Below are positions 1,976 through 23,900 of a stretch of 64,000 bases of DNA, in pieces (the first letter of the stretch is position 1; the number at the start of each line of letters is the position of its first letter). Both the position numbers and the translations under genes were made by a program. Under the pieces are notes generated by a model. It was not told the origin of the DNA and did not search any database. It worked only from the letters and a program-made list of their open reading frames with translations. The stretch is from Octopus vulgaris (Eukaryota), in NCBI GenBank assembly GCA_951406725.2, contig OX597830.1, positions 41,602,001 through 41,666,000 of the forward strand, written 5' to 3'.

Positions 1976-2540
1976 GTTAAGTTAATGACATCAGTAGCCC
2001 TGCACTGTCACCTGGCAACCATTAATTATCTGTTTGTTTTATTATGAAAGGACTGTGGAATCTAATTGAGATATATGATGTGTAATTCATATCATTAGAC
2101 CCGTGAAATGATAGAGATGTCCAACTAGTTAATAACTGATTCACTGTAACGACAAAGGTAAAAGGATAAAAACGATATTTGTGTACTTAGACTTCAAATG
2201 CTTCTATTCCATTCATTGAGATGATCCCATTTGTAACCCGTGGAATTTAAATTGGTTATATCCAGCTCTTATATTCTACCTGTTTTGTTAAAACTGGCCA
2301 GATTTGGCTTCTCACACCTACCCTACTATGTCACTGGTAAAATAAACAGCCACTTCATTGAAATCTCAAAGCTATGACATAGTGTATGACTAATTCAAAA
2401 CAATGTGAATAAATAAGCATCAAATTTGGCAGAGTAATCTGAATGCTAAAGGATTACTACCCAAGTGTTGAAGCCTCTCATCCAGTGTGTAAGTTTTGAC
2501 ATGGTATGTTGCACTTGTGAAAACATTATTTCTATTATTT

Positions 2541-3138
2541 ACATTATTTACATTTCACGGATATTTGTCCTCATCTTGTTTGTTGTTAACACGTTTCGGT
2601 TGATATACCCCCCAGCCTTCATCAGGTGTTGTGGTGAAATTTTGAACCTGGGTTCTCATTCCTAAGGTATTTTTTGATATTATTGGCTGTGTGGTTAGGG
2701 AGCTTGCTTCCTGGCTACATGGTTTCGGGTTCAGTCCCACTGCATGGCACTTTGGGTAGGTGTCTTCCACTATAACCCCGAGCCGACCGAAGATTTGTGA
2801 TTGAATTCGGTAGGCAGAAGTTACTGCCGTGTGTGTATGTGTGCGTATAGCTGCTCAGTGCCTCTCCGAAAGAGAGAGAGGGATTATTCTGGTCACTGCT
2901 TGAGCTACTAACCCCAAGATTCTGAGTTCGATTCCAGTCAGTGACCTGAAGGAGGAGGAGGAGGAAGAAGACCAACAACAACAACATCATTGGAAAATAC
3001 CTTAGGAATGAGAACCCAGGTTCAAAATTTCCCCAAGACACCTGATGAAGGTGTTAACATCAAACAAGATGAAGACAAATATCCATCAAATGTAAATAAT
3101 GTACTTAATTCCTCATCTCTTAAATATAGAACTGTACA
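2541..3138 (+). mobile_element. Palindromic tRNA-head/hammerhead-like retroelement, copy 1 (centre disrupted by a family B SINE at ~2684-2850)
   Basis: Inverted arms at ~2541-2670 and ~2905-3138, homologous to 20683-21298. Flanking direct repeat ATTTCTATT(A/T)TTT at 2528-2540 and 3139-3151. Confidence 0.8.
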
Positions 3139-3463: not shown

Positions 3464-4813
3464 CGGACTGAACTAATGAATTTCTTTTAACAATTTCCAA
3501 GGAGAAAAGGGAAATTTACATTACTCAAAAAATATAACGAATTAAGGTTTTAGCTTTGAACTATTTTTTAACAAGGAAGTTTAAAAAAAATTTTTTTGAA
3601 GGGAGTCTGAAAAATTCCCTAGCACTTTTTTAGCAAGTCTTTTCCTTTTTTTTGCTTCAGCTAGGGGATTGTGTATTTATATATATTTATATATTTTCAT
3701 TTCTTTGCTGCTTTATTGGCAAATAGTCATTATGTCATGGGCAAATAGTCATTATGCCGAGGGTCTTATGCTTTGTTGGTGTGGAAAGGAAATATAAAAA
3801 GTCCTTATAGATTTCCCAGAAAATTATTATTTCTAAAGTCATATCATTTCAGATTATTAACCTCATCTTGATACATTTACATCTACACAATATCATCTAG
3901 ATTCGAACTAGGAACCTTTGTTTCTGCAGTTATAGGCACAGGTGTGGCTGTGTGGTAAAAAAGTTTGCTTTCAAACTACATGTGTGGTACTTTGTGCATG
4001 TGTCTTCTGCTATAGCCCCAGGCCAACCAAAGCTCTGTAAGTGTATTTGGTAGATAGAAATTGAAAGAAACCCATCATATTGTGTGTGTGTTTGACATTG
4101 TGTGATAGCTGTAAATGAGTGTCACCATCACACAAGCAGTGTCATTCATTTTCAATATTCCACAAGGACATATCTGGTCTCGGAAAAATATTATTTCACT
4201 TGGAAACACCTGAGGGTTGGTTACAGAAAGGGCATCTGACCATGGAAAAATCTGCCTTAAATAAACTCCCTCTGACTCAACTAAGCATGGAAAAGTGGAC
4301 ATTAAATGATAAGCATGATGATGATGATGGTGATATCTCCTAGGCCACTAATACAGATACAACCTCAATATAGCTGCCTTTACTAAAAGATAAAAAGGAA
4401 TAACCAAAAGTTGTAACATTAATTGTGCTTACTCTATCGGTCTCAAAAGAGACCGACAAAATAAGAACTAGGCTTTAAGAAAAAAAAAAAGTTTTAGGGT
4501 CAATTCATTCAACTAAAAATTCTTCAAGTCAGTGCCCCAGTATGGCCACAGGTAATGAGTGAAACAAGTATAATAAAAAAAACTGTACCTATTATCTGAA
4601 CTCTTAGCTTAGAAATAAAGACATCAGTCTGGAATTGTGTATATTCACTAATGAGGAGGGGATTGACAGAATTGATGGAACATCAGACACGGTTGTGAGG
4701 CTGTGTTTGTTTTGCCTCTTTAAATCCTGAGTTCAATCTCTAGCTAATCTTACTCTGCCTTTTATCTTTCTAGTGTTTATAATATAAAGAACACATCAAG
4801 TATTAATTTAATC

Positions 4814-18539: not shown

Positions 18540-20881
18540 CTGTTGGGGTAAGAAGAACAAGGAAGTGTAATTTATCATCATTGTTTAATGTCTGACATAT
18601 ATTTGGTATTTCATACTGAGAGAGAGAGAGATGCACCAAGCCCCTAAGTTGTTAAGGTATCCTCATGCTTCATGTCTAGCTCCAGATTATCTACAAACCA
18701 GCAGATTTATTATCAAAGGTGATCCTGCTGTGATCATCCTGTCTTTTATGCAGACATAATGTATCTAGGACAAGATTGTTTAAGGTGTCTCTCCTTTCTT
18801 TTTGAGAGAAATTTCAGTTATTTCTAGCAATTCAAGTAACCCCAAGAAGCTCCTTTGTAGACTTATGAGATGGTTGATGAGAACAGCATTAAGTTACTGG
18901 CCAAGATGCCTTTCAAATGGGTCAATGCATATACTCATAAATAGTTACCACAAGACAGGAATAGTTCACTGCTGTGAATAGCAGAAGTGTTATGTAATCA
19001 AAGAGTTTTCCTCTAGGTTGCAGCATTAAGCTTTTGAAATTCTACCATAACTATAGCTCTGCCAAGTTGACTTATTCTAGAAAGACTAAATAAAGATAAA
19101 GTCTTTAGTGGTACCTTAACAATTCCACAACTTAAGGCACTTGTGAAGTGTTAAGTTTCTTTTAATTGACATCCTGCATGTTCATCATTTACAGGTGGAT
19201 AAATATTTTGCCTTGTGTGATGCCAAGAACCAAAGTTGCTTTTCTGAATGATTGTACATAAAGTAATGGATAACATTCTTCTCTGGAATGGTTAGTTGTT
19301 TTAAAAGCAGATTCCAACATTTCACAAAATAACCTTTTCTTAAGTACCAGCAGTTCAAACGGCCATGGATTAATTTTGATCTCATTTTCATTGAACAGAG
19401 AAGAAATAAACAAGTCTCTCTCTCACACACACACAAACAGAATGCTGATCTGTTGTAACTATTCAAAAAACTATATATAAAATTAGGTGCATCAAAGAAA
19501 GTGGCTTGGCTTCATCCAAAACACCAACAGTGGATATTCAGAACTCATGACTATGCCCAACATTTTTTCTACTTAACCGTATCACTTCTTAAACAGACAA
19601 AACATATTTTCCAAATTTTTCTCAATTTTCAAATTTATCTAACTTCTGCTAGCTTAGCAAAAAAATGTCAAAATTATTAGAGATGAAATTTTTTAAAAAT
19701 ATATTTAGATAACATACTCCACCACTGTTACGATATTCATCTATGACAGATGGAACTAGAAACTTAGCTTGGTTTGGATCAGCAAGAGCAGCATCAAGGA
19801 GCTAAAAAGTAGAAAAAATGAGAAACACAACAAATGAATACACAATGCAAGTTAGCAAAATATAGACTAATTAAAAACACAGTGAAAACCATAAAAAGAA
19901 CGTATTAATTTCACCAATCTTGGAAGGTCCTGTAAAAACCATAAGCACATCTCCTTCAGACCAAACCATGATTCCCGGTTCAGTCCCACAGCATGGCACC
20001 TTGGGCAAGTGTCTTCTACTATAGTCTTGGAGTCTTGAACTGATCAAAGCTTTGTGAATGGATTTAGGAGATGGAAACTGAAACGCTGGATTGCATGTTC
20101 ATTTCTCCTTTTGCCATCTGTGATTTGATTTTATCTTCTTTATAAATGAAGATATTTCCTCCATCTGGCTGCTTTACTTTCTACAAAATGGGAAGTTACA
20201 TTGTGGAACTGTTATTTTGACGAGTTGTATTTATTTATCACTCGACAAGATACATCTGCACTGCCCGATGCTCCTGAACCAGTTGTGTGTCCCACCCATG
20301 AGGAATCAATGCTAGATGCGTCGAAACAATTGTCTTCATTAATAATAATTTCTTGTATATTCCATCTTCTGTCTTTCATTTGCCATATATATATATATAT
20401 ATAGACAGATAGACATATATATGATGGGCTTCTTTCATATGTGTGGCTGTGATTATCCCTCCAACACTTGCTTGACAACTGGTGTTGGTATGTTTACATC
20501 CCCATAACTTAGTGGTTCAGCAAAAAAGACCAACAAATAAGTACCAGGCTTTAAAATAAGCACTAAGGTTGATTCATTTGACTAAAAATTCTTCCAGGTG
20601 TTGCCTTAACATGGCCACAGTCCAATTGACCGAAACAAGTAAAAAAAAATAAACAAACAAGAAATAACAAGTGATTTTAAATAATACAGTTCTATATTTA
20701 AGAGATGAGGAATTATGTACATTATTTACATTTGACGGATATTTGTCCTCATCTTGTTTGTTGTTAACACATTTCGGCTGATACACCCTCCAGCCTTCAT
20801 CAGGTGTCTAGGTGAAATTTCAAACCTGGCTTCTCATTCCTAAGGTATTTGCCGGCAGCGGCGCCGTCATCATCATCATCA

Positions 20882-20944
<63 letters not shown>

Positions 20945-23900
20945 TCACTGCCTGGGATCGAACTCAGAATCTTGGGGTTACTAGCCTGTGCTCTTAACCA
21001 CTACACCACATGCCTGTGGGCATATGGCATAGTGGCTAAGGGTGCGGGTTTAACCCAAGGATTCTGAGTTCGATTGTAGGCAGTGACGAGGAGGAGAAGA
21101 AAAGGATGAGGAAGAAGAAGAAGAAGAAGAAGACGATGGCCGCTGCCGCCGCCGCCACCATCATCGAAATATACCTTAGGAATGAGAACCCAGGTTTGAA
21201 ATTTCCACAAGACACCTGATGAAGGCTGGAGGGTACATCAGCTGAAATGTGTTAACAACAAACAAGATGAGGACAGATATCCGTCGAATGTAAATAATGT
21301 GATTTTAAATGTTCCTCCTAAATTGTTTTAAGGTCTACCTTTCTATGACTGCACAGGTTAGAGTTTATTGAAAAGGATTTTGAGGGGCTTGATGCCTTTC
21401 CTGTCACCAACACTCGCCTATTTCCAAACAAGGTAACATTTCCCCATGACCAGACATGTTTTTATGGCAGATTGAAAATGAATGACATTGCTTGTATGAT
21501 GGTGACATTCTCTTAGAATGATCAGATGATGTCAAGACAAGGAGACACAAACATTCACACATACACATACATACATGCATACATACATATGTATACATGT
21601 ATGTACAAACACACTTATACACAATGGGCCTTTTTCGGTTTCCGTTTACCAAATCCACTAGTAAGCTTCTTTCACCTGACAGCTATAGCAAAAGACACTT
21701 GCCAAAAGTGCCATGCAATGGGACTGAAACCAAAACCACATGGTTGTGAATCAAATTCTTTACCACATACCCACACCTGTGCCAGTGTAGTATAGATAAG
21801 TTTATAGGTTCCAAAATTTGGCACAAGGTCAGCAGTTTTGAGGGGAGGATATAAGCTGATTGTTTCAACATCAGTATTTGACTGGCTTTAAGGGTGTCAC
21901 AAAAGGCCAGGTTGAAGGCCCAACCTTCCGAGTTCTTTTACAGGGCTTAGAAAAACTGAAGGGCTGCTGCAATAAGTGCATGAATCTAAGAGGAGAATAT
22001 GTTGAATAAAATCATAATTAACTGATCCTCCTGTATTCCCTTTTACCCAAAGACCTTTTCAGCACTCCCTCATAAGTACTAGGGTTAGTACAGTTGGCTA
22101 AAACCCTCCAAGACAGTGCCCCACCATGGCTGCAGTCAAATGAGTGAAATGAGTCAAAGATAAAAGAATAAAAGTAAAGAAATAAAACCGCATAAATGAA
22201 CAAGATACTACAATTTAAAGGAATCTCATATGTGGATGTTATGAAATTAATGGTGCCATCACTAAAATTATACTCACAACATTGTTAAAATATATTCCTG
22301 GTTCAATTGTCAGAACCATTCGTGGTTGTAGATTACGATTAGTTCGAAGAGAACGCAACCCTGGTTCAGTTGATCTTTCTCCACCCTTGGTTAAAAAAAC
22401 AGTAGCAAACAAATAAGAAACATATTAACAAACATACAAAACAAAACAGAACAAAAAAATCTTTTGGGTCATTCAAATTAAATGAAATATATTATTGTCA
22501 GTTTGTTCACAATGTCTTTTCCATCTTGTCAGCCAAGACCATGAGGTGGGTTGAAAAACCTCTTTTGGATATTATTATAAACTACTGTTTACCTCAGTCA
22601 CAGTTTTAGGTTTGATTAAGAGTGTTTTTATAGCAATACACAAGATTTTATCTTTGTGACATGTGGTTTCAACACCTCCTTGGCCTTCTTTTACAAAGCA
22701 ATAGCTTGTTTTTTGTTTTTTGTAGACTAACACAGTTTACCTATTGAATACAAACAATAAAACTTCCTAGATGAATGACATACAAAAGAAATTTCATCAA
22801 CTTAACACACAAAAAAATGTTGACTCATAAACTTGTTGCAACTACTTGCTTCACAGATTTACTGTTCCTCTGCTTCACTAAACTATAGTTTCACTAAACT
22901 ACCAAGCCTATAACAGTTCCCATCCTTCTGAACCCAAGGTTCACAAATCTCTTTCCTGCTTCCATCATTTTTACTGTCTTAAATGTTTTGCCCAACCTTT
23001 TCCCCTCAGAATTGGAACCTCTGCCTATGTTTTCTTTACAAAAATTTTGCACAAGTTTAAGCAGTACATAAATTGGTTCAATCAATCTGGAGGACCTCCA
23101 ACAGTTATAAGCTCTGCATTCTTCCTTTAATTAAATCCCAAAAAGAAAGTCATCTTTTTAGATCTTGTCCATCTCCAAGTTTGGATAAGCTTTAAAAGGC
23201 ATGGCTTTGTGCCCAGCATTGCAAGCTGACAAAATGCTCATCTATTATACAAGTGAAAATTATTTCCTTGTGGTATTTATTTCCTGGTTGCTAGCTTATG
23301 GCTTCGTAGCACTAATGAAAGAACACAAACTGACAAATTTTCACGCATCAGGCCATAATCCATCGCCCTACACATTCAGCTGTATGTTTAGATTGGATAT
23401 TACCATTTCTAATAACAAATTTACCATTTTTGACTTGCTGCTCAAACATACTTATTAATTAGAAAGGAAAAAAAAGAATATTCCTTTGAAATTAAAAGAT
23501 GAAAAACAATAATTCTATGAATTTATTGGCATTTCATGTCAAATACACAAAAACTGAAAAACAAACTGCTTCAAATTTTGGCACAAGGCCAATAATTTTA
23601 AGGATAGAAGTTTGGTCAATTAGGTCAACCCCAGTACTCAACTGGTACTTTTATTTTATGAACCCTAAAAGGATGAAAGCATAGTTAACCTTGGTTGGAT
23701 TTCATCTCAGAATATAATGAACCAAGAAGAAATCATGCAATTCTGCCATTTTGCTGCCTTTAATTGTTTCAAATTTTGGTACATGACCAAGAGAGACCGT
23801 AATCGTGACCTATGTTAGTGCAGCATAACCAGCCCATTTAAGAGTACCCTTCAATCATTGGGCAATAAACTGTGCTTGCAAAGACCTGTTGAGTCAAGTC

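Follow-up and report, generated by a model that had tools for sequence, protein, structure and literature searches.

A palindromic insertion in Octopus vulgaris as the probable product of a Penelope-like element with a tRNA-like segment in its pseudo-LTR

A 64,000-nt stretch of Octopus vulgaris DNA (assembly GCA_951406725.2, contig OX597830.1, positions 41,602,001 to 41,666,000; hereafter the window) contains a 616-bp sequence, at 20683-21298, that is its own inverted repeat, with two tRNA-like heads facing each other at its centre and hammerhead boxes in each arm. What kind of element leaves such a structure, and what does the tRNA-like segment do in it? A previous interpretation made from the letters alone (the sequence-only reading) had proposed a non-autonomous short interspersed element (SINE) with a tRNA promoter, mobilised by Penelope machinery and inserted as a fold-back dimer. 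We conclude that the unit is probably a single insertion of a high-copy Penelope/Poseidon-type element, made of two 5'-truncated pseudo-long terminal repeats (pLTRs) placed head to head, and that the tRNA-like segment of the pLTR is likely to set the start of the RNA.

The outer arms of the unit (20719-20848 and 21171-21300) are 93% complementary across 130 nt, and the heads of the two arms are 77% alike. A perfect 12-bp direct repeat (20671-20682 and 21299-21310) encloses the whole unit as left and right target-site duplications, about 2 nt at each inner edge also fitting the element sequence. The left arm, on the minus strand, consists of a tRNA-like head (20941-21015) whose box A (20998-21008) and box B (20955-20963) fit our search pattern, a trinucleotide tract that is (AAT)n in the family and has partly drifted here (20850-20940), the 5' end of an open reading frame (ORF) running from an ATG at 20837 to the inner end site (20721-20837; premature stops in this copy), and an extension of about 38 nt found in this arm only (20683-20720). 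The plus-strand right arm has a head at 21018-21088 (box A 21025-21035, box B degenerate), a tract drifted to GAG/GAA/GCC repeats (21089-21165) and the ORF 5' end from an ATG at 21182 to the inner end site, without the extension (21182-21298). Each arm includes a minimal hammerhead, of type I (20766-20808 on the left, 21211-21253 on the right), with core boxes, a 5-bp stem II and stem I, and with the same 3-nt deletion, which takes out helix III and the cleavage triplet. The heads meet at 21011-21022, where the element's own sequence holds a 5-bp inverted repeat spanning tRNA +1, the presumed snap-back site. With the arms on opposite strands, the predicted fold is one long hairpin (-348 kcal/mol). 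In these respects the sequence-only reading was accurate: it had described the 616-bp palindrome, the 12-bp duplication, an extension of some 35 nt on one arm and the hammerhead boxes of both, and had cautioned that these copies were about 3 nt short of a stem III/NUH.

The unit belongs to a large family. In the host genome (2.8 Gb, 227 contigs), a hammerhead 23-mer had 5,415 exact matches, against 0 for its reversed control, which at 4-5% divergence would correspond to roughly ten thousand arms. From the first 100 matches on contig C1, with no other selection, we drew 89 distinct loci. The inverted arrangement was present in 56 of them, and same-strand tandems were rare. Exactly one arm carried the tail in 53 of the 56 inverted units, neither did in 3 and both in 0. 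Flanking repeats of at least 10 nt occurred in 19 of 55 scorable inverted units compared with 0.6% of mismatched pairs; given this excess and the 23-mer counts, the repeat family cannot be due to chance. Target duplications were of variable length (10-14 bp) and AT-rich, so that the variable duplications and one-sided tail expected of a Penelope-like element (PLE) in the sequence-only reading were both present. Since 29 non-CpG variants were common to both arms of a unit, against 6.5 expected (55 pairs), the arms of one unit come from a single source, or were homogenised later. An inverted copy with a one-sided tail is among the features already described for PLEs (PMC8557442, PMC4209133). The palindromic form is ordinary PLE behaviour; the sequence-only reading had known of no earlier description of this architecture.

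The link to a coding element came from the sequence next to the head. A coding fragment lay just 5' of the head in 1 of the first 30 unselected loci, and a search with its peptide gave 150 scored matches. In 25 of 30 fetched loci (the seed locus included), the head starts 30-41 nt past the stop codon of an ORF for reverse transcriptase (RT) and a GIY-YIG domain. At the other end, locus L184 contains the head, (AAT)n, ATG, hammerhead and an extension that continues without a break into the ORF, whose N-terminus is 39% identical over 198 aa to an 847-aa relative (E 6e-36). Similarly, a 24-mer from the tail had 5,009 matches, of which 90 continue into the ORF. L359 is a complete tandem with a unit of 2,499 bp and a broken ORF; this locus and L137 show the partial tandem that forms the pLTRs. 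The order within the ~2.5-kb tandem unit is thus stop codon, spacer of about 33 nt, head with A and B boxes, (AAT)n, ATG, hammerhead, tail and RT/GIY-YIG ORF. An involvement of Penelope machinery and an autonomous PLE sharing the tail, the one claimed and the other proposed as a check in the sequence-only reading, were thereby both found. By this evidence, each window arm is the pLTR of such an element, and the 'tail' is early ORF, encoding the N-terminus.

Domains and motifs assign the element to the Penelope/Poseidon type. L093 has a 569-aa frame with ADKGNA and DVDD (YVDD in other copies; RVT_1, E 2.7e-6), and the C-terminal GIY-YIG domain has CxC between its motifs, copies showing a CVYSIPCSCGRLYKGET-type motif. 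Its R, E and H residues are invariant in comparison with P0069, a protein matching the Pfam GIY-YIG domain at E 1.6e-5; the family's own GIY-YIG domain had no direct match in Pfam. By inspection, the linker between RT and endonuclease contains no CxxC, the criterion setting Penelope/Poseidon apart from Neptune and Nematis (PMC8557442). Relatives of the ORF are abundant, with 2,923 at E ≤1e-20 among 7,999 candidates scored. The closest proteins (P0001-P0003) are 55-68% identical; DNA context was compared only for relatives at 30-48% identity. In the P0006 cluster, the named relatives at ~53% identity are barnacle sequences, perhaps a sign of horizontal transfer between marine animals. A 194-aa frame at L099:611-1192 resembles a different Penelope-like lineage.

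The heads are tRNA-like, although the isotype first proposed was not confirmed. A well-preserved family head matched a profile of the host's own tRNAs at E 5e-5, and 48 of 105 heads matched the A/B-box pattern. The sequence-only reading had likened them to tRNA-Thr(AGT); the best host match is instead Arg(TCG) (z 8.4, against at most 7.4 for Thr(AGT)), in a comparison set of 35 distinct host tRNAs taken from an Rfam tRNA search and covering a few isotypes only. Searching the host by pattern for a tRNA-Thr gene yielded 0 matches. Neither ARAGORN nor Rfam reported a tRNA or a hammerhead, whether in the window or in the better-preserved family members, and a search of a phage collection returned a single weak tRNA match (E 0.05).

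Family members stop abruptly at this head. Of arms reaching head position +5, 40 of 54 end by -9, a figure somewhat inflated by paired arms and by a few alignments running through the palindrome. The 5'-end rate from +5 to -9 is 0.49 per 10 nt, about 20-fold above the rate of 0-0.03 upstream; within the 24 nt 5' of -9 only 1 of 14 arms ends, and over the 100 nt beyond that, 0 of 13. The built-in inverted repeat covers -7 to +5 relative to tRNA +1, and the exact fold-back junction had 559 strand matches, compared with 532 read-through matches. The first 100 fold-back matches correspond to 76 places, which extrapolates to ~425 places genome-wide. In 20 of 21 loci with the exact junction the second head is a stub of 12-35 nt, and two near-full heads occur in the remaining 1 of 21; among the 89 loci, two near-full heads without ORF sequence occur in 6. 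Hence the fold-back junction of the earlier proposal stands, whereas the symmetric double head is not the typical form. Solo copies and head-to-tail joins, which involve no fold-back, end at -2 to -7 as well. Together these ends suggest that the RNA 5' end lies at about -6, where the cDNA would run off and snap back. Internally deleted head-to-tail forms (L371, L372 and also L112, L373) join early ORF to the head at -6 or -5; L371 and L372 have an identical junction (pLTR-230 nt-pLTR) and may represent a non-autonomous mini-element.

Do these ends reflect transcription by RNA polymerase III (Pol III)? The evidence is indirect. The commonest bases of the 2,655 family columns contain 0 TTTT, against 6.0 windows expected from composition and 3.2 from dinucleotides. 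The TTT ratio of 0.45 is below that of all 34 related families (0.62-2.42), the comparison being one of family majority columns with single copies of the relatives. A possible second case is L285, an intact tandem PLE (unit 2,791 bp, ORF 855 aa, 38% identical) in which A and B boxes, then CCA and (AAT)n, lie between the stop codon and the hammerhead (1478-1700 and 4269-4522). Among 20 related families with a downstream region it alone has an A/B-box pair (shuffle p 0.0014). The pattern had been relaxed after its first version missed the family's own heads; L285 was the sole match in the pLTR slot under both versions. It may have captured a tRNA of its own, one that seems to have a long variable arm. 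In 7 of the other 19 families the slot region has a TATA-like motif together with CCAAT/ATTGG. We infer that the octopus element is probably transcribed by Pol III. No indexed run recorded as RNA was listed as containing the family sequence. In three raw RNA-seq runs (~6% of each, from an organism that may be another species), depth ranged from hundreds to more than 2,000 over the pLTR and the 3' end of the ORF and fell below 40 past the tail. Both strands were covered equally, and the fold-back junction appeared in 333-401 reads of each run. This pattern fits read-through of genomic copies and is uninformative on the promoter.

The hammerhead is kept in part of the family. Its intact form, GAAACGTT-GTGTT, the reading proposed beforehand as a check, is exact in 41 of 162 sites and rises to 92 of 162 when CpG-decayed forms are counted; the commonest form is GAAACGTTGTGTT. 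All features of the minimal PLE hammerhead (core boxes, an extra nucleotide before helix II, G10.1-C11.1, palindromic 15.2-16.2 and NUH; PMC4209133) are kept in 45 of 220 arms; neither window arm has the complete set, both being 3 nt short at helix III and the cleavage triplet. Minimal PLE hammerheads are described as poorly active, and only as dimers (PMC4209133). That of the octopus family would likewise cleave only as a dimer, and the window copy is predicted to be inert. The RNA-seq reads showed no pile-up of ends at the hammerhead. The 3-nt deletion at the cleavage site (20766-20771 and 21248-21253 in the window) occurs in 45 of 220 arms, alongside deletions of 2, 5 and 8 nt. It shows no linkage to other variants, and the two arms of a unit tend to differ in it (3 both, 12 one). 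Its enrichment at sites whose local repeat has been lengthened by CpG decay (p 0.046), together with the lack of a sharp peak of arm 5' ends at this position, makes DNA slippage, acting independently in each arm, a likelier cause than a scar of cleavage in vivo.

These findings can be combined in a model for the insertion. The RNA would start about 6 nt 5' of tRNA +1, probably through Pol III. The PLE protein would then nick AT-rich DNA on both strands, as the protein of PAc from the anole does in vitro, where reverse transcription starts at internal sites within the RNA (PMC11167929). In the octopus element, reverse transcription would begin internally, at two RNA positions a short way into the ORF, giving one arm with the tail and one without it, and, when initiated in the 5' pLTR, would run off the RNA end after ~290 nt to give short arms. 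The cDNA end could fold back on the built-in 5-bp inverted repeat and extend the 12-35-nt stub, and the folded-back cDNA could be joined to the second cDNA by microhomology. Where both cDNAs were full length, the double-headed palindrome of the window would result.

Several observations weigh against this model or its Pol III component. Substitutions in box A (4.7%) are as frequent as in neighbouring sequence (4.4%; box B, 3.0%), so that box A is not better conserved, though selection would not be expected to leave a mark on dead copies. The family columns lack GGGG as well (0 against 3.9 expected), and TTTT is absent in 4 of 34 related ORFs, in three of which no A/B boxes were found. In L285 the T-arm alone scores against the tRNA profile (E 1.5), and two TTTT runs lie early in the ORF. 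There is no pile-up of read starts in the pLTR in the three RNA runs, where depth mirrors the genomic truncation profile. The hairpin coincides with the tRNA 5' end, and a structural stop is possible. For the hammerhead, the dimer fold is feasible at -20.7 kcal/mol, but another structure, at -29.2 kcal/mol, is predicted as the ground state.

Some of these points would also be expected if the insertion were that of the same PLE and the tRNA segment a mere passenger, an old SINE or tRNA caught in the pLTR of a Pol II transcript that starts elsewhere. The ends would then pile up through stalling or snap-back of the RT at the hairpin, or through later deletion between inverted arms. The coincidence of hairpin and tRNA +1, the lack of a visible RNA start in RNA-seq and a T-run depletion that is not unique to the family are all compatible with this account, as is the internal, LINE-like promoter (that is, like a long interspersed element's) of Drosophila Penelope (PMC2377424). 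We nevertheless consider it unlikely. At -5.4 kcal/mol, the RNA hairpin is weaker than stem II of the hammerhead (-8.1), the very place with the fewest truncations; snap-back requires that the cDNA has passed the entire hairpin; the ends at -2 to -7 recur where there is no fold-back; and several relatives have CCAAT and TATA in the very slot where the family has its A and B boxes. The model of an RNA start set by the tRNA-like segment also has a more far-reaching form, in which Pol III, starting at a captured tRNA promoter, transcribes the whole 2.5 kb of an autonomous coding retrotransposon whose sense strand is free of terminators and whose translation needs no cap. Such a design would have arisen at least twice in PLEs (the family and L285), and run-off pLTR copies, in their thousands, would be a direct route from PLE to SINE-like element. 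This we regard as speculative and on balance doubtful.

The proposal that had preceded our analysis, in which a non-autonomous tRNA-SINE forms a lineage of its own, multiplies from its short copies and is moved by PLE protein acting in trans, would explain the hard 5' boundary at the head and the finding of ORF or spacer sequence in only 16 of 89 loci. The internally deleted form common to L371 and L372 also speaks for it, and Sm-alpha provides a precedent for SINEs combining Pol III and a hammerhead (PMC6765202, PMC2770079). Yet the entire arm belongs to the autonomous element, and the double-head form is rare. When a short-copy subfamily was sought, no variant separated short from ORF-linked arms, and divergence was 4.5% for the former (n=74) and 5.3% for the latter (n=46); with no private variants and the same divergence, short arms do not call for a separate SINE lineage. 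Furthermore, PAc needs RNA up to ORF +172 (PMC11167929), whereas short copies end at ~+115 or ~+155 and are probably not templates. We therefore hold this explanation to be quite improbable and take the short arms to be PLE insertions. As for a miniature inverted-repeat transposable element (MITE), or another DNA-transposon derivative with long terminal inverted repeats, the inverted shape and flanking duplication would suit it, but not duplications that vary from 10 to 14 nt, a tail on one side only, inner truncations that differ between copies and a direct link to an RT/GIY-YIG ORF. Its probability is negligible, duplication length and ORF linkage being what rules it out.

The element resembles known Penelope/Poseidon PLEs, such as PAc of Anolis and D. 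virilis Penelope, in its single RT ORF with C-terminal GIY-YIG, DKG motif and tandem pLTR, its hammerhead at the ORF start, its tail of early ORF sequence and its inverted 5'-truncated copy with a one-sided 30-40-bp tail (PMC11167929, PMC8557442). PAc has its hammerhead across the start of the ORF and its tail between two internal sites of RT initiation (PMC11167929). The octopus element differs from these PLEs in that its pLTR holds a tRNA-like A/B-box segment and (AAT)n, which mark the 5' end of most copies; the tested promoter of Penelope is TATA-less and LINE-like (PMC2377424). Sm-alpha and Sj-alpha of Schistosoma likewise have a tRNA-derived Pol III promoter followed by a hammerhead, and are described as non-coding head-to-tail repeats without an ORF (PMC6765202, PMC2770079), whereas the octopus module is the pLTR of a coding PLE, inserted inverted and with a PLE tail. 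Cassandra, Helenus and Ajax (TRIMp3) also have a small-RNA-derived Pol III promoter in a retroelement terminal repeat; they are non-coding LTR elements with a primer-binding site, polypurine tract and 4-5-bp duplications (PMC10886601), unlike a PLE with an RT/endonuclease ORF of its own. Animal non-LTR retrozymes share the type I hammerhead and a relation to PLEs, and occur as head-to-tail tandems with circular RNAs (PMC7229834, bioRxiv 10.64898/2026.07.22.740005). In contrast, the window unit is inverted, with its hammerheads on opposite strands.

The octopus tRNA-derived repeats OK/OR1/OR2, or the 'Twin' SINE, are possibly this family under a SINE label. The former were reportedly described by Ohshima and Okada in 1994, the OR elements being reported as related to tRNA-Arg, the isotype that also gave the best match to the family head, and the latter reportedly appears in the 2015 octopus genome paper. 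The family may already be catalogued under a SINE or Penelope name. The main text of a 2026 octopus repeat annotation makes no mention of a hammerhead or of words in chimer- or palindrom-. We found no report of a tRNA-derived promoter in a PLE pLTR in literature that included PMC13282606, PMC8967140, PMC3531059 and PMC2377424, mostly in less than full text. What is new is the tRNA-like A/B-box segment within the pLTR, with its sharp 5' boundary and a possible second case in L285.

Very few PLEs have had their promoters tested, and the way these elements transpose is poorly understood. A tRNA-derived start site in the pLTR makes three matters testable, namely whether Pol III can drive a coding retrotransposon, how elements combining Pol III and a hammerhead, such as Sm-alpha, originate, and how the inverted junctions of PLEs form. 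Thousands of copies preserve a defined RNA end, snap-back stubs and the one-sided tail. A repeat to which annotation pipelines would give the label tRNA-SINE or MITE is the end of a PLE.

Finally, the window contains a second inverted insertion of the family (2534-3136), split at ~2685-2890 by a repeat of another kind that resembles a tRNA-SINE. The region of the palindrome lies between two inverted copies (19979-20024 and 21683-21728; 87% complementary over 46 nt) that belong to one more abundant repeat family. Within the palindrome itself, the (AAT)n tract (20850-20940 and 21089-21165) has changed to triplets richer in G/C, not the same ones in the two arms, to an extent exceeding the flanking divergence, and this turnover is likewise present in other copies of the family.

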